33,225 bases of DNA from Methanosarcinales archaeon (lineage in GTDB: Archaea > Halobacteriota > Syntropharchaeia > Alkanophagales > Methanospirareceae): positions 1 through 33,225 of the forward strand of contig QMVO01000001.1 of NCBI GenBank assembly GCA_003661125.1, written 5' to 3'. Below, one piece after another: positions 3,418 to 32,373 of the stretch. Numbering within the stretch: the stretch's first letter is position 1; each line of letters starts with the position of its first letter. The notes beneath the pieces are model-generated. The model was not told where the DNA came from and did no database searches. It was given only the letters and a program-made list of their open reading frames with translations. The translations under genes and the position numbers were made by a program.

Positions 3418-3484
3418 GCACGAAAATACGAACCACCAAACGATAGGTTTTTTATATTATTATCACATAAACTAACATAAACAG

Positions 3485-3862
3485 ATGGCGACTGATATCG
3501 AACTGAGTACAGGTCAGCACACAGTGAAGTGGTCAAAGACCGGTTATGATGATTTAATAGCGACGATAAATGTAACAGATACAGGCGTCTCCTGTGTTAG
3601 TGTTCAAAATGGTGCGTGTTATAGTAGCACACCGCCAGGCGTGCTTATCCCATCGTCGTTTACAGTAGTAGGATATTTAAAAGCAAGTGGAGCAGTTACC
3701 GACTTTGATAGCTGGGTAGCGAGCAAAGGCGGTAAGGATAGTATTGAATACGCAGATGTTCTAGAAATAGGAGACGCTTATTTAGGATTTGTGGATATAG
3801 GATTTACACCTAACTATACTAATGTCTTAACTGCGGGAGATTACTATCTTGGACTGGGTTAG
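3485..3862 (+). CDS. small protein that starts inside a PEGA-like module (lacks the first strand) followed by a Cys-containing beta module
   Basis: The N-terminus MATDIELSTGQHTVKWSKTGYDDLIATINVTDTGVSCVSVQNGACYSSTPPGVLIPSSFTVVGYLK aligns with the giant protein's penultimate module GRHYIKAVASGYETLEMIISVSDSGIRCEYALSQGAVCYGSTPSTPGAHGLYSRNFIVKMYLK. An in-frame taa at 3473-3475 rules out an upstream extension. Confidence 0.65.
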   Translation: MATDIELSTGQHTVKWSKTGYDDLIATINVTDTGVSCVSVQNGACYSSTPPGVLIPSSFTVVGYLKASGAVTDFDSWVASKGGKDSIEYADVLEIGDAYLGFVDIGFTPNYTNVLTAGDYYLGLG

Positions 3863-3919
3863 AATGGCAAAACTTTATATATACAAAACGAATAATCAAG
3901 TATTTAGGAGTGGAGTGAG

Positions 3920-4999
3920 ATGACACTCACTGATGCTGGTCGTGAATACATAGCGAAGAACATAGGCGTAGGAGACTGTTGGGTTTATAGCGGCTTATCA
4001 TGGGTTGCAGAGAGCGTAACTGGCGATAGAGTTAATAGGACAGGTGGTACCGGAAAGGCAGTAAAAGATATTATTGACCCTACAACTGATCATATAGAAA
4101 TTAACGGGCTGAACATATCGAAAGCTACTTTAAGAGCTAACAATGGCGGAAATGATGTTACGATATCAGATGTAACTAACGAGATTTTAAAGAATGATGG
4201 TTATCCAGCAGGAGAAACCCAGTATTGTGTAGGTGCACCCGGACCGGGTCCAACGGGAGAGGGTGAGCTGTGTGTATTAACATCAGTAGACCTCGCTGAT
4301 GTATATATTGATGATGAGACAACTCCGAATCCTGACCTGTCGCCTTCGCGTAGTGAGCCACCGTATAAGTGTACAAAAGTAACAGCAACACCCGAAGGCA
4401 TACAGCACAAAGTTACAGTAAAGAAAACAGGCTATACGGCAGAACCAGTATATGTTATTTGCGTTGAAAACCAGAAAGCATATGTAACTATTTACTTGGA
4501 GCCTGAAGCTGGTACAGATGTAGGTACGCTAGAGTTGCGCGCATATAAAGAGGGTACAACAGAGGAGATACATGCAAACTTTGATATAGAAGGCTTAAGT
4601 GGAGAGGAGAAATTTCTCACTCCGCATACAATGAATGTCCCTGCAAAGACTTACGACTGGATACGGTTCTATTGCACCGGCTTTGAACCATACGAAGCTA
4701 CAAATGTGACCGTTGAAGAGGGTGAGACAACTACTGTAACTGCATACATGAAACCAAAAAGATTGTGGAAACAAGTGTATGTAGGACCACCAATCGCGCT
4801 TTTAGTAATTGATGACTTCGATATACCCAGTAGATTATATTGGGATAATCCATACGATTTTAGCGTAACTATAAGATGTTTTGAAGCAGGTTGGTATTAT
4901 GCTAATATAGAGCTAAGAGAGCCTGGGAACTTCATGGCAACTTACGACCCTGCAGACTTAGGACCAACGCGCTGGACGATACCTCTGCCTGAGAAATAA
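3920..4999 (+). CDS. PEGA-repeat structural-like protein (359 aa)
   Basis: GGAG Shine-Dalgarno motif upstream. At least two PEGA-like units: ...ADVYIDDETT...PEGIQHKVTVKKTGYTAEP, and ...EIHANFDIEG...VPAKTYDWIRFYCTGFEPYEATNVTV. Contains a GPGPGP linker. No signal peptide. Confidence 0.6.
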   Translation: MTLTDAGREYIAKNIGVGDCWVYSGLSWVAESVTGDRVNRTGGTGKAVKDIIDPTTDHIEINGLNISKATLRANNGGNDVTISDVTNEILKNDGYPAGETQYCVGAPGPGPTGEGELCVLTSVDLADVYIDDETTPNPDLSPSRSEPPYKCTKVTATPEGIQHKVTVKKTGYTAEPVYVICVENQKAYVTIYLEPEAGTDVGTLELRAYKEGTTEEIHANFDIEGLSGEEKFLTPHTMNVPAKTYDWIRFYCTGFEPYEATNVTVEEGETTTVTAYMKPKRLWKQVYVGPPIALLVIDDFDIPSRLYWDNPYDFSVTIRCFEAGWYYANIELREPGNFMATYDPADLGPTRWTIPLPEK

Positions 5000-5131
5000 A
5001 TTTCATATTTTGAAATTAACACAAAAGTTAAGCTTGAAACAACACGAATCGTTCCAGGACCGGATAGCTTGCCCGCAGGCACTTATGTTGCTGTTGTTGT
5101 AGGATATAGCGGTAGGAGGTAACGATAGAAA

Positions 5132-5464
5132 ATGGGAAGAAAAATCGTCGAGGTCGTGATAGGAACTGTGGAAGTCGAAAGTGGACCGGGACCAGGTCCT
5201 GGACCGGGACCATCTCCTTCTGTTATAGATTCATTCATAGAAGAACATCGCAAGCTGAAAAATATACTTGACAGATACGGTGCGCAAGGCATGTGCGTAC
5301 CGCGTAGCGCACTGGAAAGAGAAAGCGGCATAAAAGGTGAACGCCTTGACAAACACATCGAAGTGTTTCAGGCACATTCTGCTATTTCCGAAGTAGACGG
5401 GGACATTTTATGTGGTCGTGAAGCTTTATCAAAACTAAAAGAGAAAATTAAACTGGAGCTATAA
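5132..5464 (+). CDS. small protein with a (Gly-Pro)5 linker and a C-terminal winged-helix-like domain; paralog of the next gene
   Basis: TAGGAGGT Shine-Dalgarno motif at 5113-5120. IDSFIEEHRKLKNILDRYGAQGMCVPRSALERESGIKGERLDKH aligns with IDRFIGTHKTILALLDIAGSKGECMTAEALKEQTGVSIEEIKRH in 5469-5729. Confidence 0.6.
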   Translation: MGRKIVEVVIGTVEVESGPGPGPGPGPSPSVIDSFIEEHRKLKNILDRYGAQGMCVPRSALERESGIKGERLDKHIEVFQAHSAISEVDGDILCGREALSKLKEKIKLEL

Positions 5465-5468
5465 CAAA

Positions 5469-5729
5469 ATGACACCAAATGAAGAAATAGATAGGTTCAT
5501 AGGCACCCACAAAACAATTTTAGCTTTGCTTGATATTGCAGGAAGCAAAGGTGAATGCATGACAGCGGAAGCTCTTAAAGAGCAAACTGGAGTGTCAATT
5601 GAAGAAATAAAACGGCATAATACCCTCGCAGAAATTGATTTGGGAATAGTACAGCCAGCAGAGGGGCTAACATGCTCCAGACGCGCTATTGCTGTGTTAA
5701 AGCGGAAACTTGAAGCGGCGATAGAATAG
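5469..5729 (+). CDS. small winged-helix-like protein; tandem paralog of 5132-5464
   Basis: The ORF starts 4 nt after the upstream stop. The alignment is given under 5132-5464. Confidence 0.6.
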   Translation: MTPNEEIDRFIGTHKTILALLDIAGSKGECMTAEALKEQTGVSIEEIKRHNTLAEIDLGIVQPAEGLTCSRRAIAVLKRKLEAAIE

Positions 5730-5731: not shown

Positions 5732-7090
5732 TTATTTTCTCACTCTCTTTTTGTGTTTTTTACTCTTTGCTTCCATAAACTGTTTTACAACTTCAGCTAT
5801 TTCATTATCGGACATTTTGTCTATAACCGATTGCCATAAGATTAGCGTTTCATAGCCGTGTTGTGAAAAGATAGCTTTTCTTCCGAATTCTGTCATTTTC
5901 CACGAGTTGTTTAATGTACCGTCATGAAAGACATCACCAAAGCATTCTATAAGTTGCATTCTCCCATTTATATTAACAAAATCCGGAATAAGCCCTCCTA
6001 TAGTTATACCACAATTACAACCACCGTTATATGCCCATTCGCCAGGAATATACTTTTGTAAAACTTTGTCTATGCGATATTCAAATTTGTTTGGCTTCGC
6101 TCTAAGGCCAGCAAACATCTTTTTTGCAACCTCGCTATTTCTCCATTGTTTTAGTGCGTTTTCAGACCTTTCTTGCTTCCCTCTTTCATCATTTGCCTGT
6201 TCTTTTATAGACTTTATGGGAATCTCAAACTTTTTTAAGCTTTTTAGAATAATTGTGCGACTACATCCAATCTCCTCTGCGATTTCTGTTATACGCTTTT
6301 GCTCAACGATATATCTTTGCCATAGAAAATCCCTATCATGCGCTTTTGGATACTTGAAGTTAGGATTGTTCTCTAGTTCCATGCTTCGGATAGGTATCCC
6401 TAAAGACTTTAAAACCCTACTTACACAGGTTGGGCTACATCCTACTATTGCAGCTATTTCTGTTTGGCTTAAACCTTCGGTGACATATTTTTGTATCATC
6501 CATTCCTTATTATACAGTTGATGATATTTTCGCTGTTTTTGATGATAAGAAGAAGTGTAATAGAAAAAGGTGCTCCGCCTCTTAATCCCCGCTTTTTCGA
6601 GTGCGTTACAAACTGCTACTGGGCTACAGCCTACAATTCTCGCAATGTCGCAAGAGTCGTGTTCCCTGTCTACATATTGCTCTTTTAGCCACTCGGCATC
6701 ATGTAGTAGTGGATATTTCGTAACCCTTTCACACCCTTTGCTTACCGCTTCCGACCTCGGTCGACGCGGAATATTTAATCTCCTCATAGCCTTACCAACA
6801 ACTTGGGGACAGCAACCTAACTCTTCTGCAATATTGAAAGTACTGAGTTCTTCCATCCAATATTTTCTAAAAAGCCAATCCCTATCTTGGAGTTCTGGAT
6901 ACTTAACGGGTGTTTTTATCTTTCCTGCTTCGGATAACGAACGCCTTGGGATATTCAACTTTTCCATCCAATCCAAAACGGTGCTGTATGAGCACCCTAC
7001 TTCTTTCGCTATCTCTACACTACTTAACTTTTCCACCCAATATTTCTTATATAACCACTCCTTATCCTCAAGCTGTGGGTATTTTGACAT
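5732..7090 (-). CDS. putative homing/selfish endonuclease: five tandem HTH repeats plus a C-terminal Vsr/DUF559-like PD-(D/E)XK nuclease domain
   Basis: Five repeats of about 56-63 aa each: KYP.L.D.(E/D)WL...Y......(E/D)IA...GCS...V......L.IP.R. The C-terminus ...GGLIPDFVNINGRMQLIECFGDVFHDG...GYETLILWQSVI matches the PDF...IE.(F/D)G..(W/F)H...GY..l..W pattern of Vsr-like nucleases. Confidence 0.65.
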   Translation of the reverse strand: MSKYPQLEDKEWLYKKYWVEKLSSVEIAKEVGCSYSTVLDWMEKLNIPRRSLSEAGKIKTPVKYPELQDRDWLFRKYWMEELSTFNIAEELGCCPQVVGKAMRRLNIPRRPRSEAVSKGCERVTKYPLLHDAEWLKEQYVDREHDSCDIARIVGCSPVAVCNALEKAGIKRRSTFFYYTSSYHQKQRKYHQLYNKEWMIQKYVTEGLSQTEIAAIVGCSPTCVSRVLKSLGIPIRSMELENNPNFKYPKAHDRDFLWQRYIVEQKRITEIAEEIGCSRTIILKSLKKFEIPIKSIKEQANDERGKQERSENALKQWRNSEVAKKMFAGLRAKPNKFEYRIDKVLQKYIPGEWAYNGGCNCGITIGGLIPDFVNINGRMQLIECFGDVFHDGTLNNSWKMTEFGRKAIFSQHGYETLILWQSVIDKMSDNEIAEVVKQFMEAKSKKHKKRVRK

Positions 7091-7225: not shown

Positions 7226-10200
7226 TTAGTCTATAACCGTTATTGTTGCATCTCCGGGTACTGACTCGAATCTAACAGTCTTTGTTACCGCCGCTTTCTT
7301 CAAATACATTTTCACTATGAAGTTACGCGAATATAACCCATGTGCACCGGGTGTTGAAGGTGTGCTACCATAACATACCGCCCCTTGCGATAATGCATAT
7401 TCACACCTGATACCCGAATCAGACACAGAAATAATCATCTCTAATGTTTCGTATCCACTGGCAACGGCTTTTATATAATGCCTGCCGAACGGTATGAGCC
7501 CGCCTGTTGCTATCTCCTTATATGTAGCGTTTGGTATATCATACGGTTTGTAATAGAACTTTGCGTTGATATTGTAGCCATCAGAGCCTGAATATGCTGA
7601 TAAATATATATATGTAGCTCTACATACTTTAGCAACTGTTGTTTCGTTTGCTTTTACATCCACATGGAACTTACATGGCGAGAAGCACTTGTCGAGTATA
7701 TTCACATAACAATAATCGTACTCTCCTTCCTTGCCCGCTATCTCTACCGTATGTGTACCTGCGGGCAATTTAGCCGTTACTGCATACCCACCGCCCTTAT
7801 CAGCCCCATCAATAAAGAAAGCAGCAACATTGCGAGGCGTAGTAAATGTAATAGTGTCGTATGTCGCTACCGTTAACTCTCCTTCTGGTGGTTTGGGTGT
7901 ACTTACCGTGATTTTCTGTGTTGTAGTCCCACAATTAGGCGGAGTTGCATCGTTACATGCTTCCAAGCGAATGCCCCACACGCCAACCTTATCAAAAGTT
8001 ATAGTTATTGTTTTACCAGTCTTCGTGGTTACAGCCCCGTCCGGGTCTGTAATTGTCCATGTCCACGACACGATTTTGTATGGCGCTTCAGTATGTGCCA
8101 TGCCTGTTAGTGTTACAGTCTCGCCTACACTAACAGTAGTAGGACCAATAATCTTTACATGATCTACACCCGGTGGCGCACCAGGACATGCGGGGAATGT
8201 GTCTCTACCAGTATCTGAACCAGCATAATATTCATAGATCATGTCAGCATCGTCACGCGTTACTTTACCGTCACCATTAACATCAGCTCGTTCCTTGAAT
8301 TCTGATTCTGATAAACCACCTACTTTATCTTTAATCGCATTCCAGCCGAGTTCTACATAATCCATAACGAGTTTTGCATCTTCGTCTGTGACATAATTAT
8401 TGGGGTCGTTGTTCACATTGCCATAGTTACTGCATGGTGATTCTCTGTATTCATACGCCCTTGATACAGTAACTGTCCTGTGCTCATCAATAGTTCCAGC
8501 ACAGATTTTGAGATGTATCTCGTAACTGCCTGCCTCAGTAAATGTGTGTGTAACTACCCGTCCAGTCTTCTTAACATCGTGCGGGAATGTCCATTCCCAA
8601 TCAGTTATTTCAGAATCAGCACAGCCTTTTGCATGCCCTTCAAAAGTTGTAGGAGTACCTACTCGTACGCTTTCACGCGCTCCTGAATAATAACTGAACC
8701 ATGCTCCCGTTGCTGGGCATACATACGCTTTAGGATTCCAGACGATAAGTTTTTCTTCTTTCGCTCTCTTCTCAGCATTTAAGAATTCTTTAGTATCTAC
8801 ATACTTGTTGCTATGGTAAAAGAAAACTTCACCTACACCGTTTCTTACTGCTTCTAAACATATATTTCTCGTTCCGTAGTAAATCGTTCCTAAGATTCTA
8901 TAATATTTGTCTAGCTGATCTAGTGGATCAACATATACTTTTACATCTGCACCGTCGATTGTACTAAACAGCCACATAGTAGCCTCGTCGTAAGCCCATT
9001 TAGTCACATCACGACAAGTTTCTGTGTTTGGAGCGTTCTCAACCTCTATCCTGCACGATACATAATGCCCCGCTATTGCGCCTTTATCTGGAGCGTTATA
9101 TCCAGTAAGTCGTATTGTAGCATATACAGGTATTCCCGGCTCCATATCAGGAGCTTTTTTAAGCCCTTCGAGAAACTTTTGGTATGTATCCCATCTCTTT
9201 TTTAACTCTTCTTGGGTCAAGCCAGTATGTATTGTATCACCGTCTATCACATCACATACATGTGTATAGAATTCACATTCATCTTCTTTCAGATGCGGTG
9301 GAACTTTATAAACTCGCGCAGCCAACATTTTGCGGCTTCTATCATGGAATTCTAAGCATGACATCGCAAATTTCCAGTATATCCCATAAAATGCTCTCCC
9401 AAACAGTGAGTTTACCCACGCTTTTGTGTCTTTTATCCACTCGGAATAAGCAAGCAGTTCCTGTTCTGCTGGTTGCCACTGCTCATCCTTTATGTAACCC
9501 TGAATCATAATTGGCCAGTTTTGAGGTAATTCTTCGATCAAAGCCCATGCGTGTGTCATCCCCCAACCAATATAAAGACCAATTGCCGATAATGCCAATG
9601 GACCAGCAATCCAAGGTTTTTTTAGATATGTCGCTGCATCTCTTATGAGTTCTTTTGCATACGATGAGAATTTTTGATCTACAAGCATAGCCGCTTTTGC
9701 ACGGCTAATACCAAAATCTTTGCTGACACAGTCAATAGCTTTATCTCGCACGCCGGGATAGAATCCAGATTTTTTGAAATCGTCTGCAAGCATATCCATC
9801 TCTGCAATGATTCTCGTTGGTCGTGTTCTTTCACTTCCAGCTCTTTTACCCCATTCATCAAACTGGTCGATAAGCGAACTTGCAAGTTGGTTCCATCCGC
9901 CTCTGAACGAACCTCTAGGTATTGGTGTATCTGTTTCGATACAAATCGAGCGCACTATGTTCATTAAGGCAGTATCTAAATCAAACCCTACATTGTTTCT
10001 TATTGCATCTAATTCTTCGTCTGTGATAGTTCTGAACCTATAAGCAAGTTTTGCCTCTGCTGGTCCTACTATCTCTCCCGTGTCCGTTACTTTACCGCCC
10101 AGCTTAGCAAAATAACGAGCAAATTCTTCGTCTGATAGCTTACGGACAGTTTTAAACATAACTTCAGGATTGTAGTATGAGAGGAATCGAATTGCTAATC

Positions 10201-13200
10201 TACCAGGATCAGATACCGCTTCTGCTCTTATAGCATTTCTTATCGTATTTATCATTAAGTTTTCTAGCGAATCATCCGTCTTCGTAAAGTGATACCACTG
10301 TATATGATTCTCTGCAACACGCGCTATTTCCTCTATCTCTTCACGGTTCGCACCTGTAGCGACGAAAATCTCATTCCATCTCTTCTCAGTGTAATGTTTA
10401 CTTAAATGTTCCTTCACATCATTGAAGAACTGTAAACGAACGCTTGGTTCTACATCTATTTCTGGAAGTTCGTTCAGTTCTGTTATTACACGATCCCAAT
10501 CTTTGGCACGCAAGGCTTGATTTATCCGTCTCAACCGTGTTTCGTCCGTGTGTGCTAACGCTTTCCAAAGTTGCGGAAATAGTGGATGTTTTGGACTGGT
10601 AATACCTTGCGCGTATAAGACTTTAGTAAGTTCAGGCAAATCAAGCTCTTCTTCTCCTCTGACAAGCTTGTTTAACGAATTAATAGCTGAGAACTTGCAA
10701 TGCCATGCCGATGGGCTACACAAAGCATCTGCGGCTTTTATGAACACCGTTATATTTTTTGCTCTATCACCATACCGCAATGTGTAGATATACGCAGGAT
10801 ATGCCTCGTCTAAGAGCTTAGCGTATTCGTCGGGGAATAAAGAAAGTTCCTCTAATGCTTCGCGATACGATTGATGTGAAAGAGACTCCTCGATCATATT
10901 CTCTAACCTTTCGAGATCGATATAAGCTAAAGTATCGTCTATCTCATCGGCATAGTCTGATACATCACGAGCACTGATCCTAATTATAGCAGCATCATCA
11001 AGCATTACCGATGCTTCTGCAAGTTCACCTTTTACTAAGTGCTTAATATACTTCTCTTTCTCCTCTGGCCGTGCTACTCTCCAGAAATGCCAGAACCTAT
11101 CTTCAGAGAACGCTTCAAAGACTGCTTTTCTAATGGCTTCTTTTGAATATGCAGCAGCTTCACTGAGGAGAAGACCCGTTTTTGAGAATTTGCCGAGTTT
11201 ATTAGCTTTATTAAATGCTGTCAATACCAATGCATAATCGTGCATAGCAGGTGTCATAGGTGTCCCATCAAGAGATTTACCGTGCTTTACAATCTCAAAA
11301 GATTCAAAAAAGTGATATTTAGGTTTTGCCCTACGCGCAAGCTTGAATGCACCATCCCAATTGTCATTTAACAATTTAGCCAATCTCTCTCCAGAACCGC
11401 GTACAAGGTCATCATCTCCTATATATGCAAGTAATTCACCAGCAGCTTCTCGCACATTGTCCCTAATATCCGCAACTACCTTCGCATAATCTGGGTGTGC
11501 AGGATCAATATTATCGATTTGCTTTTCAAGCTCGTCCAGCCACTGGTTAAACTTACTAATCGCTTCCGAATCTTTTATTGCAGGATTATTGAGAATGTCT
11601 TCTCCTAATCCTCTAGCTTTTTCTATGTCGCCATCAGCGATAGCCTTAATCCATAAATTCAATCTCGCCTCGTCACCATATACCAGTGTTCTATAAAATC
11701 TTTGTGGATCCTCTTCTATGAAATTCCTAACAGCAGCAACATCATCGCCATATTTACTGCCTTTCCTTATGACTTTACCCAGATACTTTGTTATATTGCC
11801 ACCCGGCACCATTGGCAGTAGCGAGCATACCACAACTATCGGAAACATAGCGAGGTCAAACGCATCGGGATGATACTCCGCACCATATATGTCCTTGCCC
11901 CTAAAAACACCTGAAATCACATTTGCACAATATACCGGGTCCAGCATATCTCCCCAGAACCGGCGGCATTCATCTGAATCTTTTGGTATGCCTACGAGCT
12001 CGCAAGCCTCACCAAAGACACCATAGCGAGAGTAGAGATATATTTCCTTCGTGCCCTCGAACTTACCACACCAAACAGGACCGGTAGGTAAATATCCTTT
12101 CGATACGCTAGGTCCTATGCCATATGTCTCGCCTTCTACCAGTCCATCGGCTTTAGTAAATACAGCCTTACCATCAGGATAGCTATCTGGTGATTTAAAG
12201 ATAGGCACGGCATCCGGTGTAGATAAAAAGCATCGTGCCCAGCCATACGCCTTTTTACAAAGAATTTGATCTCCTGTTTTAAATCCTCTAGTGTGTACAA
12301 TAAACTTATCCTCCTCTGTAATAAACCTGAGCGTGAACTCAAATTCATAAGTACCTTCGCCGTTCTCACCTTGGCGACGTGTTGTCACAGGCTTTGTCCA
12401 GTCCTCATGCATCTCTTCATTCAAATAGCCCGGCTTACCCGCTATGAATCCATATCTACAAGCAGCCCCGGGTAGTGATGGTAAGCCTATACTAAGAACA
12501 CCGTTATCGTCTGTCTTCAGGAGATTACCATAGCCGTTCCAGCTCTCGGTGGTGCATATACCTTGGTGCACCGTTATATCAGAGCACGGAACTTCCTGCC
12601 ATGTACCTTCAAAAATCTCTTTCGTGACACTTACATACGCGTGTTTTATACCATGACCTTTCTCGTCCTTTACGGTTATCCGTATTTCGTACGGTCTTCG
12701 TGTTTCTGTCTTGAAATCGAGCTCGTCATCTGATGGACAACCCTGTATTATCTGCCCGTCTTTGATATGGAAACTATAATCCTTGCCATATTCCATATCA
12801 ACATCGCAGCTTAAGAAGATTGTTTCGAGCTCGTCCTTGTTTAATGTTGTAGTACTGGTTTCGATACCGACTGTATTTCCAGAGCTACAGCCTGTACCTT
12901 TACGCAGCCACAGACAGCGACGGTACGATGGTAATCCACCCGTGTTCTTTACTATTAGCTTGAATAGTGGACGTTTACAATCCCCTAAATCTATTGTGCT
13001 GTTCTCTTTTAAGCCCCAGAAAGTTATACCGTTATCAATACTGTAAAAAGCCTCTACAATCTCTAACTTAGCTGGGGGTATCTTTTTTAATTTCAAGATT
13101 AGAGCCCATCCATAACAAGCGGTAAAAAGTTTACAACTCTCGCTGCCATAGGATTCGTAGCCTTCCTTTGATGCACATGCTGTGTATACTGTCCCTTTAT

Positions 13201-14269
13201 CAAGATTGCATAAATCACACTCACCATTTGCATCCGTCCCGTAGCCGCTACCGTCAGGCTTCTCGCATTGAATAGAGTAGGTGCCCATATCAATTGCTAC
13301 TGTGGCACCTTTTATGGGCTTACCCGAAGGTTCAATCACCTTAACGCGCTGTTTGCATGTGGTACTTCTAAGTTTCAGTGTTTTAAGGGATGTACAAGCA
13401 ACAAATTCTGTGCTGGAGTCTGAAATCACTTCATAACCTGAAGGTGCTGACGCTTCTGCTACACACCAAACTCCTTCTTCAATATCCTTTACTGTACATT
13501 CGCCATTAGAATCAGTTGTGCATCTACCAAGCTCTTTTGCAGTGCCTTTCTCTCTTACTATAACAACAGATTGGGAGACACGGGCACCCGTATCTTCCTC
13601 AATAACCCTAAAGGATTGGTTGCATGTAGACTTAGCCGATACTGTTATATACTCAGTTCTAGAACAGTCAGTATCATACAGACTAACCTGCCATGTGCCT
13701 GTAGTAGCATCATCAGGGATTGTATAAACCTTACCGCCAGTGCCGGACACAGTCCACGACTTGCCAGGTATCCCACTGGGATACGCACCGATATATAAAG
13801 TGCTATTTGGTGGTGCATTTTTGTAGCTTATCGCTACCGTATCGCCTTGGTAATATTCATCCTCGTCTGTCGAAACGGAGCAGGGCTTAGTTGTTTTTAC
13901 TTTCAAGTGTATAGTGCCAGCCGAATCATGATAATAGCATGTTCCACCTTCATACGAACCGCACTCTATCACCGCATCTTTGTCTGATGAGGGCATGCTG
14001 AAGGTACAATCAGGCATTTTCTCTTCCCATGCGCCTGCACTTATATACTTCTTTTTCCAGCAACGAATTTGTCCGCCCCACTTAATATAGTAGCAAGCCG
14101 TGCCTGCGGTGTTATTTGTGTTATTAACAAATGCTCTTGCGGTAAGTGTTGCCCCTGCTGGCGCTATGAGCGTATCGCCAGGATGGTATATCTTGTTATT
14201 GTACCATATATATGCACTATAAAATTCGTATGCTGGTCCTAGTGTTCGCCCTTTCGGTTTCCTCGCCAT
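7226..14269 (-). CDS. giant (2347 aa) multidomain virion/adhesin-like protein with an embedded staphylococcal-nuclease (SNase)-like domain
   Basis: A single uninterrupted ORF. All aa positions are approximate. N-terminus: Ig-like and Cna-B/transthyretin-like repeats (TTDSNGECTVKDIEEGVWCVAEASAPSGYEV; TDANGECDLCNLDKGTVYTACASKEGYES). About aa 400-520: CARDB-like module. About aa 840-1650: helical region, with hydrophobic helices FDLAMFPIVVVCSLLPMVPGG (just before it) and WIAGPLALSAIGLYIGWGMTHAWALI (inside it). About aa 1665-1825: SNase-like (VIDGDTIHTG...IRLTGYNAPDKG...DKYYRILGTIYY...EAVRNGVGEV). Then two PKD-like units, two dockerin/EF-hand loops (NNDPNNYVTDEDAKLVMDYV; DVNGDGKVTRDDADMIYEYY), PEGA units, and a truncated PEGA end VRFESVPGDATITVID*. 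No signal peptide. Confidence 0.8.
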   Translation of the reverse strand: MARKPKGRTLGPAYEFYSAYIWYNNKIYHPGDTLIAPAGATLTARAFVNNTNNTAGTACYYIKWGGQIRCWKKKYISAGAWEEKMPDCTFSMPSSDKDAVIECGSYEGGTCYYHDSAGTIHLKVKTTKPCSVSTDEDEYYQGDTVAISYKNAPPNSTLYIGAYPSGIPGKSWTVSGTGGKVYTIPDDATTGTWQVSLYDTDCSRTEYITVSAKSTCNQSFRVIEEDTGARVSQSVVIVREKGTAKELGRCTTDSNGECTVKDIEEGVWCVAEASAPSGYEVISDSSTEFVACTSLKTLKLRSTTCKQRVKVIEPSGKPIKGATVAIDMGTYSIQCEKPDGSGYGTDANGECDLCNLDKGTVYTACASKEGYESYGSESCKLFTACYGWALILKLKKIPPAKLEIVEAFYSIDNGITFWGLKENSTIDLGDCKRPLFKLIVKNTGGLPSYRRCLWLRKGTGCSSGNTVGIETSTTTLNKDELETIFLSCDVDMEYGKDYSFHIKDGQIIQGCPSDDELDFKTETRRPYEIRITVKDEKGHGIKHAYVSVTKEIFEGTWQEVPCSDITVHQGICTTESWNGYGNLLKTDDNGVLSIGLPSLPGAACRYGFIAGKPGYLNEEMHEDWTKPVTTRRQGENGEGTYEFEFTLRFITEEDKFIVHTRGFKTGDQILCKKAYGWARCFLSTPDAVPIFKSPDSYPDGKAVFTKADGLVEGETYGIGPSVSKGYLPTGPVWCGKFEGTKEIYLYSRYGVFGEACELVGIPKDSDECRRFWGDMLDPVYCANVISGVFRGKDIYGAEYHPDAFDLAMFPIVVVCSLLPMVPGGNITKYLGKVIRKGSKYGDDVAAVRNFIEEDPQRFYRTLVYGDEARLNLWIKAIADGDIEKARGLGEDILNNPAIKDSEAISKFNQWLDELEKQIDNIDPAHPDYAKVVADIRDNVREAAGELLAYIGDDDLVRGSGERLAKLLNDNWDGAFKLARRAKPKYHFFESFEIVKHGKSLDGTPMTPAMHDYALVLTAFNKANKLGKFSKTGLLLSEAAAYSKEAIRKAVFEAFSEDRFWHFWRVARPEEKEKYIKHLVKGELAEASVMLDDAAIIRISARDVSDYADEIDDTLAYIDLERLENMIEESLSHQSYREALEELSLFPDEYAKLLDEAYPAYIYTLRYGDRAKNITVFIKAADALCSPSAWHCKFSAINSLNKLVRGEEELDLPELTKVLYAQGITSPKHPLFPQLWKALAHTDETRLRRINQALRAKDWDRVITELNELPEIDVEPSVRLQFFNDVKEHLSKHYTEKRWNEIFVATGANREEIEEIARVAENHIQWYHFTKTDDSLENLMINTIRNAIRAEAVSDPGRLAIRFLSYYNPEVMFKTVRKLSDEEFARYFAKLGGKVTDTGEIVGPAEAKLAYRFRTITDEELDAIRNNVGFDLDTALMNIVRSICIETDTPIPRGSFRGGWNQLASSLIDQFDEWGKRAGSERTRPTRIIAEMDMLADDFKKSGFYPGVRDKAIDCVSKDFGISRAKAAMLVDQKFSSYAKELIRDAATYLKKPWIAGPLALSAIGLYIGWGMTHAWALIEELPQNWPIMIQGYIKDEQWQPAEQELLAYSEWIKDTKAWVNSLFGRAFYGIYWKFAMSCLEFHDRSRKMLAARVYKVPPHLKEDECEFYTHVCDVIDGDTIHTGLTQEELKKRWDTYQKFLEGLKKAPDMEPGIPVYATIRLTGYNAPDKGAIAGHYVSCRIEVENAPNTETCRDVTKWAYDEATMWLFSTIDGADVKVYVDPLDQLDKYYRILGTIYYGTRNICLEAVRNGVGEVFFYHSNKYVDTKEFLNAEKRAKEEKLIVWNPKAYVCPATGAWFSYYSGARESVRVGTPTTFEGHAKGCADSEITDWEWTFPHDVKKTGRVVTHTFTEAGSYEIHLKICAGTIDEHRTVTVSRAYEYRESPCSNYGNVNNDPNNYVTDEDAKLVMDYVELGWNAIKDKVGGLSESEFKERADVNGDGKVTRDDADMIYEYYAGSDTGRDTFPACPGAPPGVDHVKIIGPTTVSVGETVTLTGMAHTEAPYKIVSWTWTITDPDGAVTTKTGKTITITFDKVGVWGIRLEACNDATPPNCGTTTQKITVSTPKPPEGELTVATYDTITFTTPRNVAAFFIDGADKGGGYAVTAKLPAGTHTVEIAGKEGEYDYCYVNILDKCFSPCKFHVDVKANETTVAKVCRATYIYLSAYSGSDGYNINAKFYYKPYDIPNATYKEIATGGLIPFGRHYIKAVASGYETLEMIISVSDSGIRCEYALSQGAVCYGSTPSTPGAHGLYSRNFIVKMYLKKAAVTKTVRFESVPGDATITVID

Positions 14270-14281: not shown

Positions 14282-15109
14282 TTAAAAGTGATAAAAATAA
14301 ATATTGTTCCATTCAAAATCAGGTGTCCAGCTCTCAAAGGTAAAGTGCCTACTAATAACTCGTGCGTTACGCTTAAGATTTTCCTCTAATAAGGGTTTTA
14401 TTACTTGGTTTACACTCTGAAGAAGATAGACATAAACACAATCTGCCTTCGCTATATCCTGAGCCGCATTCATGAAGCTTTCCTCTTTAATTGTTACAGG
14501 CAAACCTTTCGTGTTCTCTCTCGCCTGTTCTGCACGCTCATGATTGAGTTCATAGCCTATGCACTTCGCACCGAACTCGCTTGCTGCTATCTTCAAGTTC
14601 CTGCCATCGCCACACCCCAGCTCCACAAAAATCTCGCCCGGTTTTAGGTTCGCTTTTTGCAGTGCTATTCTTATCTCCTCTTCAGGTGTTGGCACATACA
14701 CTACACACTCGCTATCTTGGCACTCACCTGACCACATCACATGATAGTGGCAGTGAGTAATGCCTGCAGGAAATTGCAATGTGATTGTTGTCGGTACGCC
14801 ATTCAAATTGCCTGAATAAACAAGCTTTGTCGGGTATTTCATGAATGCGAATAGATCAAAAGGTGCGTGTAGTTTATCTTGTAATAGCCATTCAAACTCC
14901 GCTGTGTAGTTGCTATCGGTTTTTGTGATATGGTCTGTGACAATCTCTTCGCTGTGTGTCGCACTATCATAATATCTAAGTGTCGTACCCTCGGCAGTTA
15001 CAGTAATAGTGCGTGCCGTACCACTTTGTGTATCTTCTGCTTTATGCTCTTGCTCTCCTGCTTTCTCCCGTTTTTCGCGTAAAATGCGTGAAATTAAGTT
15101 ATCCCCCAT
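14282..15109 (-). CDS. class I SAM-dependent methyltransferase with an N-terminal domain of about 140 aa of unknown function
   Basis: Motif I VELGCGDGRN; acidic motif II IGYELN; later CVYVYLL strand. No DPPY/NPPY-type DNA-MTase motif was seen, so the substrate is unknown. The stop is 12 nt upstream of the giant gene start. Confidence 0.7.
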   Translation of the reverse strand: MGDNLISRILREKREKAGEQEHKAEDTQSGTARTITVTAEGTTLRYYDSATHSEEIVTDHITKTDSNYTAEFEWLLQDKLHAPFDLFAFMKYPTKLVYSGNLNGVPTTITLQFPAGITHCHYHVMWSGECQDSECVVYVPTPEEEIRIALQKANLKPGEIFVELGCGDGRNLKIAASEFGAKCIGYELNHERAEQARENTKGLPVTIKEESFMNAAQDIAKADCVYVYLLQSVNQVIKPLLEENLKRNARVISRHFTFESWTPDFEWNNIYFYHF

Positions 15110-19254: not shown

Positions 19255-19557
19255 TTATCTTACCTCTCCGTTCTTCACTAGTTCTGCTTTGAATGTCTCA
19301 ATCAAATATTCTTCCGTTGTGAAGTTAACCATAACTTCTCCACCCTTCGGTGAAACAACTGCTACAAGCCATCCGTTCTTGAAGATATGGAAGGTGAATG
19401 GTTCTATCTCCCATCCATCTTTATCCTTTGTCTTTCCGTCTGCCGTGATCTTAACGATATAATCGCCAATCTGCTTGCTGACAAGTCCTTTTCCTGTGAG
19501 TGGTGCATATTCCATGAAATGTTCTGCCAATACCGCAAAAAGTTCAGGGATTTTCAT
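19255..19557 (-). CDS. hypothetical protein (100 aa)
   Basis: ORF track. ATG start with GGAGAGG upstream. Confidence 0.5.
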   Translation of the reverse strand: MKIPELFAVLAEHFMEYAPLTGKGLVSKQIGDYIVKITADGKTKDKDGWEIEPFTFHIFKNGWLVAVVSPKGGEVMVNFTTEEYLIETFKAELVKNGEVR

Positions 19558-20044
19558 TTACTTTCGCCTCTCCAACTCTCCATCCTGACGTACCTATCAC
19601 TGTCACATCCTTTAGCGCCTCTACCGCGTTCTTAAACTCAGCAATACGCTTCGCGCTACCTTTTACTGTTGCAACCCGCATCATCTTGTTACCATCTATC
19701 ATTGTTGAAACCGAACAGGCAACATCCCTGAATTTCGCTTCACACTCCATAAGCTCTGCAATTAGTGTTTGCTTATGTTCACTGTGTTCAGCAGGTAGTA
19801 TATACACTACCACACCCATCTTCTTCGTATCTCTTTCGTGCCGTAGCCCTGAGATGTGCTTTTCGATATGAACCCTGAGCAAATCACGAATAGCTTCTGA
19901 CTTGGTTGCATAGCCCTGCTCTTTTATCACCGAATCAAAAAGTTGCAGTAACCGTAGAGGCAGTGATACTGTAAGCCTTTCTATTTTAACATCGCTTGCC
20001 TTTCTACCCTTCTTCCTTTTTAGTTCCCCTTCTCTATCCATCAT
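19544..20044 (-). CDS. NikR-like transcriptional regulator (N-terminal RHH plus C-terminal ACT/ferredoxin-like domain)
   Basis: IERLTVSLPLRLLQLFDSVIKEQGYATKSEAIRDLLR closely matches the NikR RHH signature (...tv.l...ll..ld......gy.nRSEaiRDllR). The C-terminal half has the beta-alpha-beta-beta-alpha-beta pattern of the NikR regulatory domain, but most nickel-ligand His/Cys positions look replaced. Confidence 0.65.
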   Translation of the reverse strand: MMDREGELKRKKGRKASDVKIERLTVSLPLRLLQLFDSVIKEQGYATKSEAIRDLLRVHIEKHISGLRHERDTKKMGVVVYILPAEHSEHKQTLIAELMECEAKFRDVACSVSTMIDGNKMMRVATVKGSAKRIAEFKNAVEALKDVTVIGTSGWRVGEAKVNENP

Positions 20045-24875: not shown

Positions 24876-25865
24876 TCAACTAAGCTTCGCTGTGACTTCA
24901 AACAATCGTACAAAAATTATCTCTGCGCCACTTCTGCTCTTAAACATAAGCATGAGATGCGTCACATGATTGAGTTTGTACGGCACATAAACAGCTACCG
25001 TATTCGAACCTTTGTGTATATATCTTGGAAACGGAAATACACTCGGCTGGACACTCATCTTGAACTCCTGTGAAGACTCTATATTCAATATTAGCCTAGC
25101 GCCAAAGAACGACTTTACTACCTTATAGCTTGTGATAGTCACTGCTTTTTCTGGCTCTGGCTGTGGTTCATGCTCTTTTGGCTTGACTATCCATGCCTCT
25201 GGTATTGGATAGCTCAGTGGTAGTGTTCCATAACCATCATCACCCCAGTCATCTCCCCACGAATTCTTGAATTCAAAGACTTTATTATCGAGGTCGTATC
25301 CGGTAATAACAATCGCGTGATAACCCAAGAACTTACCCGACGGCATTTTTATCTTGCCGTTAGAGCGCCATGAAGCATCATATACAGGAACTGCTGCAAA
25401 AACAGGCAATTTATTTGCAAATATAGTGCCTGGCAAATCATAATAAACGCGATGATAACTGCCAATACGATACTGCTCCGCTTCTTTGTTCATACGCGTT
25501 GGTGAACATACTTTTTGTAGACACTTGTTAGAGATAGGGAAGCAAGCATTAACACACGTGCCTTGCTTTTTCATAATCTTCAGCGCATCCCTTAGTTCCA
25601 TCCCTCTACCTGCATTTGCACGCCGCTCATAGACCCAACATTCGGAGAGATCCACACCATCAAAGAAAGGTCGTGATTCTGCAATCGCGCAGATAGCGCA
25701 CGCTACACAAATAGGCATCCCATCCTGATCAATCACATGCGATTGACTATCTCTGAGACTGAACTTTCGCGGGATGGGTGTGGTAGTAGGTGCCGCGTAC
25801 TGCACATCTCTGAGGTCTCCCCGCGATAACAGCGCGGCACACGGATACACACGAGCTGATTTCAT
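24876..25865 (-). CDS. papain-family (C1-like) cysteine peptidase with an extra C-terminal domain of about 90 aa; no signal peptide
   Basis: Candidate catalytic Cys region DQDGMPICVACAICAIAES. His region FLGYHAIVITGYD. Asn/Trp region FEFKNSWGDDWGDDGYGTL, which matches the hallmark NSWG..WG..GY of papain-like peptidases. Confidence 0.7.
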   Translation of the reverse strand: MKSARVYPCAALLSRGDLRDVQYAAPTTTPIPRKFSLRDSQSHVIDQDGMPICVACAICAIAESRPFFDGVDLSECWVYERRANAGRGMELRDALKIMKKQGTCVNACFPISNKCLQKVCSPTRMNKEAEQYRIGSYHRVYYDLPGTIFANKLPVFAAVPVYDASWRSNGKIKMPSGKFLGYHAIVITGYDLDNKVFEFKNSWGDDWGDDGYGTLPLSYPIPEAWIVKPKEHEPQPEPEKAVTITSYKVVKSFFGARLILNIESSQEFKMSVQPSVFPFPRYIHKGSNTVAVYVPYKLNHVTHLMLMFKSRSGAEIIFVRLFEVTAKLS

Positions 25866-26852: not shown

Positions 26853-29144
26853 TCAGGTCGTGCCCTTCTTTACGCCATCTATATAGACATCTACGCCTCT
26901 AAGTTCATTGCCTTGCTCGTCCTTCGTGACGAAAGTCACTTCCACTGTTGGTGAAACATTATAGAAGTCGAACTCATCATCAGAAGGACAAGTGGGCATT
27001 AGCCGCCCATCTCTGACATGGATACTATAATTCTGGTTTGACTCTATACTTGTAATATCGAATGTTATATCCTCTATATCTTGGTAATCCAATACCCTAT
27101 CGCTTTTTACTCCGGCAATAGTCCCTACCGCTGCACATCCATATTCTTTCTTCACCCATACAAAACGTTTTTTAGAAATACCACCATCATTTCTTATACG
27201 CACTTTAAATTTAAGCTCTAATCCTACTGGGATATAAGCTGTGCCACCGCGAGTGATTTCTGTCCATCTACTGCCACCATCTAGGCTGTAATACGCGTTA
27301 GTTATCTTCAATTCTGGGTTTTTAGCTTTTATGGTTACTGATAGCGTTCTCTCGTCTGTGCTCTTTCCCGTGGATGTTGGCGCTATATAGAACACTAATG
27401 AATAAGTATTAGGTATAGCATTTGAAGGAACAGCAAATGATAGCGGAGAAAATGTCTTCGTTTCATTTGGCTTTATTTCAGATATGCTGTACGTCTTGTA
27501 ACGTGACTGCGGGTCTGTATTTATTTTCACAAAAAGATTTCCTGTATCTGCCTTATCACCAACATTCTTAATTGTTACGCTCAACTGTATAGTATCCCCA
27601 GGGTGTATATCACCACCCGTTATTACAGCCGCGTTTGTAAACCTAAAGTCGGGCTTTTTAGCTACTAGCGTCTTCGTTACGGTAGTGGCAGTATTAGGCA
27701 CTGTATAATCGAATTCCACAGTGCGATAGCCTTCCTTAACTAACTTCACATGCACTGTCTTACCGGGCTCAAGCTCAATAGTAAGTGATGGCATTGTTTC
27801 TCCTTTTAGGTCTCCATCTATATAAAGCTTTACCTCGCGTAACTCACTACCATCTTCAGCTTTCGTAACAAAAGTGATTGATACTTTACTGGGACTGAAA
27901 CATTCAGGGCATTTTGCATTTATCGAGTTCTTTTCCCATGCAGCCCAAAGGAAATCTACTTCGCGTATAGTTATCTTTTTTTCGTGATAGTCGTTCCATG
28001 CAATACCCATATCAGTTATATCAATTTTACCATTACTGTCCTTATCATAGGACAGTAATAACTCACAACCGTTTGCAAACGAAGGAGTTGGCGCGCTACA
28101 GGTCAGTTCAGGCAATGTCTCACCTTCAATAATCAATGAAGGAATCAAATCGCTATGCGTATTGTTATTAGCATCCGTAAACGATACAAACGTTAGCTTA
28201 CCATCGCTATTTTCTATTGTTTCTACATCATGGAACATCTGTGGATAACCCGACAAGTGGACTTCTATGTTGTACTCCTCGGCACCTCGTTTTATCTCAT
28301 TGCCTTTGCCCGGCGAAATTGACCACGAAGTTACCTGCGCAGTCGCATCAGAACACGCACGTGTTTTTATGGCCGTTATCTTCAGATACCCTGTCCCTCT
28401 TATCGTTAGCTTGCCTTTGAACACGCCTGAGATACTTGGATATGGGCTGCTCGATTCGCCGGTATCAAAAACTGCTTTGCTACTACCAGTCACCGGAAGC
28501 GCATTCAGCGCTTCGGTTACTATTTCTTCTGGAAGCTCGTTCCATGTGTAATAAGTAGCCCAGTCTGTAAAATATATGCAATCTACATTGTCAGGCGGAT
28601 TGCTACACCCATCTGCTAATAATATTGCTATTAGAACTTTCTTGTGTTTGTATAGCTTCGAAGACCACCATCCGATATAAGAAGCTGTAGGCGGCTTGCA
28701 CCATTTATCTTGATTGCCACTACTATCGCCATATTCTTCTGGTATAACTGCCTCATTTATTGTACCTCCCTCACCTAACTTAGCCATTAAGTTGTCATAA
28801 AATTCCTGTTTCGTTATCTTCGGTATTTCAGCAACAGTAAAAGTATCTGTTACCGAATCCGTCACAGGAGTATCAAAAGGATTTACTTCAACTAACACTG
28901 TATGACTACCGTGGATATCTGAACTTACATGGATATTATATGCGCTTGAACGCTCGCCGGGAGCAAGTGCGGTTGATTGATATTGACGATAGAGGTTACC
29001 ATCTAAATACAGTTTTACCCAATATCGCGAGCTCGTGTCACCATTGTTCTCAACATAAAATGAAGCTTTTACATAGTCATCCGGTTCGATTGTGTGTAAG
29101 TCTAATAAGCTTTCTCCGGCGAGGATTATCTTCATGCTTTTCAT
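26853..29144 (-). CDS. adhesin/virion-surface-like protein (763 aa): CARDB-like domains, dockerin/EF-hand loop, PEGA-like domain, truncated PEGA-like C-terminal tag
   Basis: N-terminal CARDB pattern (DLHTIEPDDYVKASFYVENNGDTSSRYWVKLYLDGN...). EF-hand loop SYDKDSNGKIDITDM. Full internal PEGA-like unit VSITFVTKAEDGSELREVKLYIDGDLKGETMPSLTIELEPGKTVHVKLVKEGY. Further CARDB-like units (VTIKNVGDKAD; VRIRNDGGIS). A module shared with the giant protein (TCPSDDEFDF). Ends ...VEVTFVTKDEQGNELRGVDVYIDGVKKGTT*. No signal peptide. Confidence 0.75.
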   Translation of the reverse strand: MKSMKIILAGESLLDLHTIEPDDYVKASFYVENNGDTSSRYWVKLYLDGNLYRQYQSTALAPGERSSAYNIHVSSDIHGSHTVLVEVNPFDTPVTDSVTDTFTVAEIPKITKQEFYDNLMAKLGEGGTINEAVIPEEYGDSSGNQDKWCKPPTASYIGWWSSKLYKHKKVLIAILLADGCSNPPDNVDCIYFTDWATYYTWNELPEEIVTEALNALPVTGSSKAVFDTGESSSPYPSISGVFKGKLTIRGTGYLKITAIKTRACSDATAQVTSWSISPGKGNEIKRGAEEYNIEVHLSGYPQMFHDVETIENSDGKLTFVSFTDANNNTHSDLIPSLIIEGETLPELTCSAPTPSFANGCELLLSYDKDSNGKIDITDMGIAWNDYHEKKITIREVDFLWAAWEKNSINAKCPECFSPSKVSITFVTKAEDGSELREVKLYIDGDLKGETMPSLTIELEPGKTVHVKLVKEGYRTVEFDYTVPNTATTVTKTLVAKKPDFRFTNAAVITGGDIHPGDTIQLSVTIKNVGDKADTGNLFVKINTDPQSRYKTYSISEIKPNETKTFSPLSFAVPSNAIPNTYSLVFYIAPTSTGKSTDERTLSVTIKAKNPELKITNAYYSLDGGSRWTEITRGGTAYIPVGLELKFKVRIRNDGGISKKRFVWVKKEYGCAAVGTIAGVKSDRVLDYQDIEDITFDITSIESNQNYSIHVRDGRLMPTCPSDDEFDFYNVSPTVEVTFVTKDEQGNELRGVDVYIDGVKKGTT

Positions 29145-29461
29145 CCTGTTTCTCCTATTAGTTCACCGTTAATATAAACGCTAACATCTGCTAGTTCTAC
29201 ACCTGATTCGTCATGGACGATGAAAGTAATTGGTACATTTTGCGGTGTGCCACCACCTCCCCCTTCTTTAGCGAGGACAAGCTCGATAACAACGCAAAAC
29301 TGACAACATCCATGCGAACCCACAGGGGCATAGCCGCACGATACAACTTTCCAGCCATCTGGTGGGCTATAGCTAACACAGGATTCGCCACATGCATACC
29401 CGTGTATTTTCGTTGGGTTGCCGTTCTCATCGCGTTCCAAAACTGTTTCATCATTGAGCAT
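29141..29461 (-). CDS. small Cys-rich protein (106 aa) ending in a poly-Gly linker and a truncated PEGA-like tag
   Basis: ORF track. ATGA overlap with the downstream 763-aa gene. The C-terminus is GGGGGTPQNVPITFIVHDESGVELADVSVYINGELIGETG*. Confidence 0.6.
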   Translation of the reverse strand: MLNDETVLERDENGNPTKIHGYACGESCVSYSPPDGWKVVSCGYAPVGSHGCCQFCVVIELVLAKEGGGGGTPQNVPITFIVHDESGVELADVSVYINGELIGETG

Positions 29462-30865: not shown

Positions 30866-30985
30866 CAACTACCCACCGTTAAAACGGTAGGCTTGCGGGT
30901 GAATCATCATGCACCGCACTCATCCCCGCCTCAGGCTGGTTGACAACAACCCTGTGAGTTGGAGCCCGCTCCCAACTCACTCAGG
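30866..30985 (-). ncRNA. candidate omega-RNA (reRNA) scaffold overlapping the tnpB 3' end and right end
   Basis: In characterised TnpB systems the guide RNA derives from the 3' end of tnpB plus the right end. Stem-loops here are at 30954-30979 (gtgagttgg..ccaactcac) and 30871-30890. The extent and guide cannot be set without RNA data or a covariance model. Confidence 0.35.
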
Positions 30986-32025: not shown

Positions 32026-32141
32026 ATAGGTTTTTTATATATAAAACCTTAATATTAAAAACAAAAGAGGTGAGAGAGGGCGAATTCCTCACACCTACAA
32101 GTAGGTGTGTCTCCTTCGCCCGTGTACTATGAAAGGCAGTT

Positions 32142-32336
32142 CTACTCTCTTCTGTGTTTCTTCAAGAGCAGTGAGATGTCGTCTTCTTCAAGCGATGCGA
32201 GTATATCAAGTGTTATCCGCAGCACTTCTTTTACTTGTGCGATGTTGACACTCTCTTTCTTGCCTTCTGCTTTGGTTATTTCCTCAGCAAGCCACTCTTC
32301 ACTTATTATCCCTTTTTTGGTATACTTTGCGCACAT
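32142..32336 (-). CDS. hypothetical small helical protein (64 aa from MCAKYTKKG...)
   Basis: Shortened version of track ORF 32142-32561, chosen so that it does not overlap the divergent + gene. The start is uncertain. Confidence 0.4.
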   Translation of the reverse strand: MCAKYTKKGIISEEWLAEEITKAEGKKESVNIAQVKEVLRITLDILASLEEDDISLLLKKHRRE

Positions 32337-32373
32337 AATATTATTTATCTGCTTTGATAATAAAAACATATTC

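Follow-up and report, generated by a model that had tools for sequence, protein, structure and literature searches.

The stretch of DNA analysed here, referred to as the window, comprises the 33,225 nucleotides at positions 1–33,225 of contig QMVO01000001.1, from an assembly filed under Methanosarcinales archaeon (GCA_003661125.1). The element is related to contigs binned as Methanophagales, and we treat it as a virus of these anaerobic methanotrophic archaea (ANME-1). It carries a small gene (3485–3862, + strand) encoding a protein of 125 residues that begins with the back half of a PEGA-like beta-sandwich, and at least five other proteins of the window terminate in the front half of such a domain, that is in its first two strands (about 20–30 residues). 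We discuss whether the two kinds of halves, made as separate polypeptides, may dock onto one another.

The first-pass annotation, which was made from the sequence alone, had called the open reading frame (ORF) at 3485–3862 and its start, and both hold. The same start is found in 15 of the 16 close homologues of the protein, which come from ANME-1/Methanophagales-type metagenomes (one of them is named "Methanophagales archaeon"), and an in-frame stop (TAA, 3473–3475) does lie 9 nt 5' of the ATG. A TATA-like A/T-rich box, gttttttatattatt, occupies about 3448–3462 on the + strand, about 25–35 nt upstream of the ATG, and is the putative promoter of the gene. The box, the ATG and the upstream in-frame stops are kept in 20 loci.

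The small protein opens with MATDIELSTGQHTVKWSKTGYDD (its N-terminus reads MATDIELSTGQH) and consists of two parts: residues 1–66 form the PEGA-like back half, which contains a conserved Cys37/Cys45 hairpin, and residues 67–125 form a helical C-terminal module. Among the invariant residues of its family are L, G, H and C. The Pfam PEGA profile (PF08308, 71 positions) matches it above the gathering threshold, with 23.9 bits (E 3.8e-5) for a cut-off of 20.8 bits. Only positions 29–58 of the profile are matched (by residues 5–33), so that the small protein alone does not cover the whole domain: the N-terminal "PxGA...DG" strands are missing. The C-terminus belongs to the class of C-terminal module that ends in DYYLGLG. 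The small protein has no match to the Pfam dockerin family (PF00404) up to E 0.1, and the calcium-binding D-x-D-x-D pattern is missing from its C-terminal module when the sequence is read by eye. A second class of C-terminal module, seen in relatives (homologous proteins are numbered P, related loci L), has a conserved near-terminal cysteine, with endings of the type GNxKTGC(N/S/G)(Y/F), SLWGC or KCGW; its members include P0010, P0012–P0015, P0034, P0047, P0061, P0066 and P0073. A six-frame scan of the window with hidden Markov models (HMM) detects the small protein as the sole free back half and the sole C-terminal module.

The largest protein of the window (7226–14269, − strand, 2347 residues), hereafter the giant protein, contains near its end a complete module in which a front half and a back half of the small-protein type follow each other in one chain (7295–7618, −; HMM match of the back half at residues 2261–2325, 29 bits). 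The likeness of the small protein to this module, noticed at first pass, is substantiated by BLASTP (40% identity over 70 residues from G10 onwards, E 1e-10). The giant protein does not end with this module. It continues into a further front half, AAVTKTVRFESVPGDATITVID, encoded at 7226–7294 (−) and followed directly by the stop codon; the C-terminal end of the protein reads VRFESVPGDATITVID, or KTVRFESVPGDATITVID in a longer readout. The ORF at 32107–33111 (+), called the HExxH protein after a motif it contains, terminates in the same way, its last residues being VTFSSEPEGATIELIE and its front half, IGVYIVTFSSEPEGATIELIE, being encoded at 33046–33111 (+).

Listing the C-termini of all ORFs of the window revealed three more tails, which are longer. 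They are carried by an EF-hand protein of 323 residues (29469–30440, −; tail KKVTFIAKDNNGTEISGVEIRVDGALKGTT, 29469–29561), a Cys-rich protein of 106 residues (29141–29461, −; tail VPITFIVHDESGVELADVSVYINGELIGETG, 29141–29236) and a CARDB-domain protein of 763 residues (26853–29144, −; tail VEVTFVTKDEQGNELRGVDVYIDGVKKGTT, 26853–26945). These three tails are paralogous and lie in adjacent genes; the stop codon of the 106-residue gene overlaps the start of the 763-residue gene (ATGA, 29141–29144). Some tails are preceded by a Gly5 or a Pro/Thr linker, as in the 106-residue protein, which ends in G5-TPQNVPITFIVHDESGVELADVSVYINGELIGETG. The 763-residue protein also contains an intact internal PEGA module (27654–27884, −; profile positions 13–68), which spans KLYIDGDLKGET and, directly after it, MPSLTIELEPGKTVHVKLVKEGY. 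The junction between its halves reads KGET/MPSLTIELEPG (LYIDGDLKGET followed by MPSLTIELEPGKTVHV), and by comparison with this intact module, the tails of the 323-, 106- and 763-residue proteins end exactly where the small protein begins.

Fit of the tails to the back half

The pattern initially described, one protein with a module that lacks its first strands and two others that end in first strands only, is therefore found again and is wider than thought, with five tails; the registration of the strands had to be changed. The start of the small protein, "MATDIEL", had been equated with the "GATIELIE" strand at which the giant and HExxH proteins stop. This equation is rejected, on the basis of the PEGA rescans of fused sequences and of an alignment with the homologue P0091, because it is off by one strand. 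In the rescans, each tail was appended to the small protein, the reference being a small protein trimmed to 71 residues, which scores 18.3 bits. The PEGA match then extends over positions 9–58 with the tail of the 323-residue protein, 3–58 with that of the giant protein and 2–58 with that of the HExxH protein, and all three fusions score more than 18.3 bits. Since the matches begin at positions 2–9, the tails correspond to the first two strands of the domain, with the P-x-G-A motif. We estimate that the giant and HExxH tails themselves cover about positions 2–20. The "P-x-G-A-T-I-x-[LV]-I-[DE]" of the tails is the PEGA-motif strand, and the "ATDIEL" of the small protein is the third strand, from about position 29.

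On the PEGA profile, the tail and the small protein are contiguous. An artificial fusion of the two aligns with P0091 across the junction (BLASTP, E 8e-18), with a single gap of one residue located four residues past the junction. With the corrected registration, the giant and HExxH tails stop about six loop residues before the small protein begins, these residues being in neither piece, and there is therefore no strand that the two pieces share or at which they abut.

A structure was predicted with AlphaFold2 for a fusion in which the 30-residue tail of the 323-residue protein is covalently attached to the small protein; the input alignment (A3) comprised 54 sequences. The mean predicted local distance difference test score (pLDDT) is 93.1 and the predicted template modelling score (pTM) is 0.68; tail residues have pLDDT values of 94, 90 and 89. 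The model consists of nine strand segments followed by helices at 104–110, 119–129 and 141–152, so the fusion is predicted to fold as a complete transthyretin-like domain with three helices behind it. Foldseek relates the model to the transthyretin-like domain of carboxypeptidase D (5aq0, template modelling score (TM) 0.72 by target length), to the CnaB2 domain of FbaB (2x5p, TM 0.55 by target length) and, weakly, to the X-dockerin chains 5m0y_B and 2b59_B (probability 0.66–0.69). Among viral models it retrieves a phage carboxypeptidase-regulatory-like protein (TM 0.65) and baseplate proteins. In sequence and in predicted fold, the reconstituted module would thus match the PEGA (PF08308) and carboxypeptidase regulatory-like (PF13620) families. 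Canonical PEGA domains are single and contiguous, whereas here the halves lie on separate polypeptides, and the back half, with its additional Cys-Cys hairpin, forms a distinct subfamily.

The two sheets of transthyretin are DAGH and CBEF, and its first two strands are interior strands, one in each sheet. A domain of this type deprived of its first two strands would therefore be expected to have an open core.

Conservation of the tails and history of the split

The tail of the giant protein is better conserved than what precedes it. When the giant protein is compared with its homologue in L002, the last 22 aligned columns (the tail) are 72% identical, and the preceding windows of 22 columns are 50, 31, 22, 27 and 18% identical; within the C-terminal 440 aligned columns, no other stretch is as well conserved as the tail, which is present at every locus that has the giant gene. 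This indicates that the tails are under purifying selection. The four homologues of the 323-residue protein (P0017–P0020) all end in the front half, three of them in VDGxLKGxx and P0020 two residues earlier, in IDGELKG, and the homologues of the HExxH protein, P0170 and P0171, terminate in SFSSEPEGAIVELIE and KTVTIECDTCSEIYVNGKKI, respectively. In these two families the tails are kept as front halves in homologues of 58–90% identity, and the end point shifts by two residues (P0020) or about four (P0171).

These observations bear on the possibility that the pieces are evolutionary debris, left when recombination or inversion between PEGA repeats shuffled the cargo, and that the truncated ends no longer interact. 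The three long tails are indeed paralogous and adjacent, a block of genes including the small gene has really been inverted (see below), and the junction beside the end of the giant gene is a hot spot for insertions. However, the conservation of the giant tail (72% against 18–50% in the rest of the C-terminal region) and the maintenance of front-half tails in three families, whose homologues differ in the end point by a few residues at most, are not what debris should look like. Moreover, some ORFs of related loci consist of little more than a tail, namely a dockerin or EF-hand-like module joined by a linker to the front half (L036, 13539–14012, +, 157 residues; L035, 17335–17637, protein p100; L034, 8595–8867, 90 residues), and the same loop has been split in independent lineages. 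We consider this explanation improbable. The minimal ORF of L036 overlaps a gene call on the other strand that is probably erroneous.

The front-half hairpin is also seen at the extreme N-terminus of some proteins: conserved proteins of about 250 residues, which begin with MKKVAFSSVPE and continue with SIYIDGTPIEDYE, and a protein of 96 residues. Their genes (L024, 95–853; L027, 1686–2438; L030, 9085–9843; L031, 154–912; L033, 1545–2285; L002, 7247–7537) usually have a tailed gene on one side and a back-half gene on the other.

Several relatives have both halves in one chain. In P0091, P0104 and P0151, the front half, the back half and the C-terminal module follow each other; in P0091 the order is SDPVNAIIYIGGELIG then KAMLTYSLSRGEY. 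In P0024, a homologue of the giant protein, the front half runs via ILTIESIPAGATIYID into a homologue of the small protein, after an insert of 50 residues. The first-pass annotation had stated that homologues with the complete N-terminal strand would count against split halves. Such homologues exist, and we read them the other way, as Rosetta-stone support, because they show the back half to be, as a rule, one part of a two-part domain.

In L035, the gene order (giant fused to small, then genes for 452, 109 and 112 residues) matches the block of the window (3485–5729, +), where the small gene is followed by genes for 359, 110 and 86 residues. Compared with L035, the window has this block turned round with respect to the giant gene. 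In L044 the two halves are in frame and separated by one stop codon and six nucleotides (ILYIDGSEI-TAA-aacaag-ATG-TETIDLTLGDH), and in L038 they are encoded by collinear, separate genes; there the small gene, which has a TATA box of its own, lies 43 nt 3' of the giant gene, and the interval contains several in-frame stops. Collinear or fused forms are confined to the divergent lineages L035, L038 and L044, and the convergent orientation is common to the window and eight related loci, nine in all, which stem from different samples. Taken together, the gene orders support an evolutionary inversion of the block 3485–5729 relative to L035, and the same loop was split independently in L044, in L038 and in the lineage of the window. 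We propose that in the latter the separation of the giant and small genes came with the inversion of the block. The comparative series, which goes from a fused gene to a single stop codon, to separate genes and to inverted ones, is a clean natural example of domain fission.

In the region 740–800 of L044, the L-Y-I-D codons (cta tat ata gat) form the stretch TATATATA, about 25–33 nt before the ATG of the small gene. It could be that TATATATA doubles as the promoter of this gene, or that the TAA is read through.

Another proposal is that a full-length covalent domain is produced by a programmed event: an inversion like that of the Mu G or P1 C segment (the option that the first-pass annotation had raised), read-through, joining of RNA, or post-translational ligation of a tail to the small protein. 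The analogy with Mu (G/Gin) and P1 (C/Cin) is that a large gene for structure or adhesion has, close to its 3' end, a C-terminal piece that points the other way, as the small gene does with respect to the giant gene, and that a relative (L035) has the fused order; in L044, read-through of the single in-frame TAA would yield an intact domain; and the window encodes a papain-like protein (Peptidase_C1). Most of the evidence points in the other direction. A repeat search over the whole window found no inverted or direct repeats that link the region around 3485 with those around 7226 or 33111, and the longest common or complementary words between the 5' region of the small gene and the 3' regions of the five tails are no longer than in shuffled controls, which rules out recombination sites and RNA pairing between them. 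According to Pfam, none of the 28 larger ORFs of the window has a serine (Gin/Cin/Hin) or tyrosine recombinase domain; the mobile-element genes present encode a LAGLIDADG endonuclease, TnpB and an HTH-rich (helix-turn-helix) protein, and the match of the last to an invertase family of PHROGs is limited to the HTH part. Unlike in Mu and P1, there is no alternative cassette in the other orientation, both orientations are not seen in populations (all nine loci are convergent), and the small gene is equipped with a conserved TATA-like box and an ATG of its own, preceded by stops. Nor could one cassette serve five genes at the level of DNA. The absence of repeats, of shared words beyond chance and of a recombinase in the ORFs scanned, the single orientation and the presence of one cassette for five genes lead us to conclude that the inversion is evolutionary and is not a switch.

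Frameshifting and read-through are ruled out in the window, since in the six-frame scan none of the tails is followed by sequence that codes for a back half, whatever the frame. Only for L044 can read-through be envisaged, the genes of L038 being separated by several in-frame stops. Ligation, for instance by the Peptidase_C1 protein (24876–25865), is purely speculative. We therefore regard a programmed event as very improbable.

Proposed docking in trans

We favour the reading, proposed at first pass, that the domain is reconstituted non-covalently, and we give it a probability of about one half. It is the best supported, by the contiguity of the pieces on the profile, the one-chain relatives, the independent splits, the conservation of the tails and the fusion model. 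The PEGA/carboxypeptidase-regulatory-like beta-sandwich would be encoded as two pieces. The front piece (strands 1 and 2) would be a tethered C-terminal tag on the giant, HExxH, 323-, 106- and 763-residue proteins; the back piece (strand 3 onward, with the disulfide-type hairpin) would be the N-terminus of the 125-residue protein, ahead of its three-helix module. The small protein, made as a translation product of its own, would accept the hairpin of a tag in trans into its incomplete sandwich, which closes the fold. Each tagged protein would thus gain a C-terminal module, presumably an anchoring or docking element, of the kind that the equivalent proteins of relatives carry covalently at their ends. 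Binding in trans, its stoichiometry and the target to which the C-terminal module attaches are what we infer from the anatomy of the sequences, the conservation of both termini, the covalent and collinear relatives and the folding of the covalent fusion in silico.

Two features expected of fold complementation are seen in the window. As far as its sequence tells, the acceptor lacks strands of its own fold, and the missing strands are present on other polypeptides of the same element, the distribution being complementary: five tails for one back half and one C-terminal module. The cargo domains of the window recur in relatives with the C-terminal module fused covalently. This is so for the Cys-rich domain of the 106-residue protein (in P0072 and P0021), for one domain of the 763-residue protein (in P0022 and P0030) and for the cargo domain of the 323-residue protein (in a 412-residue protein of L028). 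In addition, genes with a free front half adjoin genes with a free back half in L024, L030, L034, L038 and L044.

A number of points weigh against docking in trans, and some of them favour another explanation: the back half is autonomous, the tails are functional beta-hairpin tags that bind something else (part of the capsid or virion, a protein on the surface of the host, or one another), and the two look complementary only because they share PEGA descent. An exhaustive profile search gathers the back-half family into 382 representative clusters (E 0.001 or better). Among about 100 full-length domains with less than 50% mutual identity, only four have a front half in cis, immediately upstream in P0091, P0104 and P0151 and after the insert in P0024. 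In about 70, the domain starts at residue 5 or before, and in about 30 it lies inside multidomain proteins, after flexible Pro/Thr/Gly linkers. Since most members of the family have no front half in cis, the back half might be autonomous, and with its extra Cys hairpin it may well fold without a partner. The tails, for their part, may bind another acceptor: L035 and L036 have tailed proteins, and the back halves visible in these stretches (18–21 kb) are complete in cis, no free back half being seen nearby. The front halves found at the N-terminus of the proteins of about 250 residues and of the 96-residue protein also suggest a generic hairpin module. In the window itself, five tail genes would depend on a single acceptor gene, and the joins of the giant and HExxH proteins, about six loop residues short, are less seamless than the three others. 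As for the structure prediction, AlphaFold2 reaches a pLDDT of only 42, too low to be informative, when it is given the single sequence of the fusion; and because the fusion is covalent and the alignment holds natural full-length domains, the confident model shows compatibility of the two pieces rather than binding in trans.

On the other side, P0091, P0104, P0151, P0024 and L044 tie the tail specifically to this type of back half, the C-terminal module has a complementary distribution in the window, and free-front-half and free-back-half genes are often adjacent. We thus find it rather unlikely that the tails are meant for another partner.

A broader version of docking in trans can be put forward tentatively. 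There could be a natural tag-and-catcher code in ANME-1 viruses, in which a two-strand front-half hairpin, at the N- or C-terminus of many unrelated proteins, inserts into PEGA-like domains devoid of a front half. The acceptors, which make up at least 382 representative clusters, frequently come together with dockerin-like or EF-hand modules. Virions or infected cells would in this way be fitted with a modular complex, comparable to a cellulosome, for surface display or adhesion. In a more radical variant, which is a speculation, docking would be followed by covalent ligation of the halves.

Fold complementation in trans is already known as a principle. In donor-strand complementation (chaperone–usher pili, archaeal threads, bundling pili), an incomplete beta-sandwich is completed by another polypeptide, as we propose here. 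The differences are that the donor would be a two-strand hairpin from the N-terminal side of the domain, not a single strand; that the fold would be prealbumin/PEGA-like, the pilin systems having an Ig fold; that the donors would be tags at the C-termini of unrelated cargo proteins, where pili use the following subunit of a homopolymer; and that no chaperone or usher is present. The form proposed here is not a known one: a hairpin of two N-terminal strands would serve numerous cargo proteins as their common tag, the acceptor would be prealbumin-like, and there would be a single adaptor protein.

The SpyTag/SpyCatcher pair was obtained by splitting the CnaB2 domain of FbaB (PDB 2x5p), of the prealbumin-like fold class. 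The likeness lies in the reconstitution from a short tag and a catcher that is larger, the resemblance to 2x5p being one of fold (TM 0.55). SpyTag is engineered, corresponds to the C-terminal strand and is locked by an isopeptide bond, whereas the tag described here would be natural and is the N-terminal hairpin. CnaB domains form their isopeptide bond with a Lys-Asp/Asn pair and a catalytic Glu; no such triad is obvious among the invariant residues of the family, the conserved residues being Gly, His and two Cys.

Attachment of diverse cargo through small docking modules also recalls the cohesin–dockerin and X-module–dockerin systems, all the more so since the giant protein has a Pfam dockerin and the 323-residue protein has EF-hand pairs, and the fusion model (a sandwich followed by helices) weakly resembles X-dockerin chains. 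Unlike in cohesin–dockerin pairs, the proposed connector is a split domain, and the C-terminal module has no Pfam dockerin match. The genomes of ANME are rich in dockerin and cohesin proteins (PMC9012536). If docking in trans is confirmed, the split domain would join the dockerin/cohesin and EF-hand modules, which abound in ANME (PMC9012536), as a third type of connector. It would be a naturally evolved and combinatorial docking system on a prealbumin-like fold (many cargo proteins, one adaptor), would explain how large adhesin-like proteins are assembled in these viruses of methane-oxidising archaea, and would provide protein engineering with a ready-made, possibly thermostable, non-covalent tag-and-catcher pair.

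The element and its other genes

A scan of the GTDB genomes matches only an 82-kb contig of a Methanophagales metagenome-assembled genome and one contig of 2 kb. IMG/VR contains no relatives of the 323-residue protein or of the small protein, and the phages of GenBank give no blastn match. No capsid or terminase gene is recognised in the central gene block with PHROGs and Pfam. Viruses of ANME-1 have been described (PMC9894754), and the word PEGA does not occur in the passages of that paper that were searched; a description of a split PEGA domain was not found in the literature searched.

Apart from its PEGA modules, the giant protein has a staphylococcal-nuclease domain (residues 1746–1845), two PKD domains, a type I dockerin (1952–2012) and N-terminal SpaA/CarboxypepD_reg-like domains. 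The other genes of the window include those for a LAGLIDADG homing endonuclease (1556–2641, +), an S-adenosylmethionine (SAM) methyltransferase (14282–15109, −), a NikR-like ribbon-helix-helix regulator (19544–20044, −), the papain-family cysteine protease mentioned above (Peptidase_C1, 24876–25865, −) and a TnpB protein (OrfB_IS605/Cas12f-like TNB, 30931–32025, −).

The true start of the HExxH protein is probably Met90 (about nt 32374), which gives 245 residues, as in P0170 and P0171. In both of these homologues the second His of the HExxH motif is replaced by Leu (HELHL), and the assignment of the protein as a zincin protease is therefore doubtful.

Last, the convergent junction just 3' of the giant gene is a hot spot for insertions. 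In the window it is occupied by the HTH-rich gene (5732–7090, −), which matches PHROGs annotated as HNH endonuclease, and in L001 (12316–13722) and L004 (12489–13658) by TnpB genes in opposite orientations; in L002 (13115–13160) there is only a gap of 45 nt.

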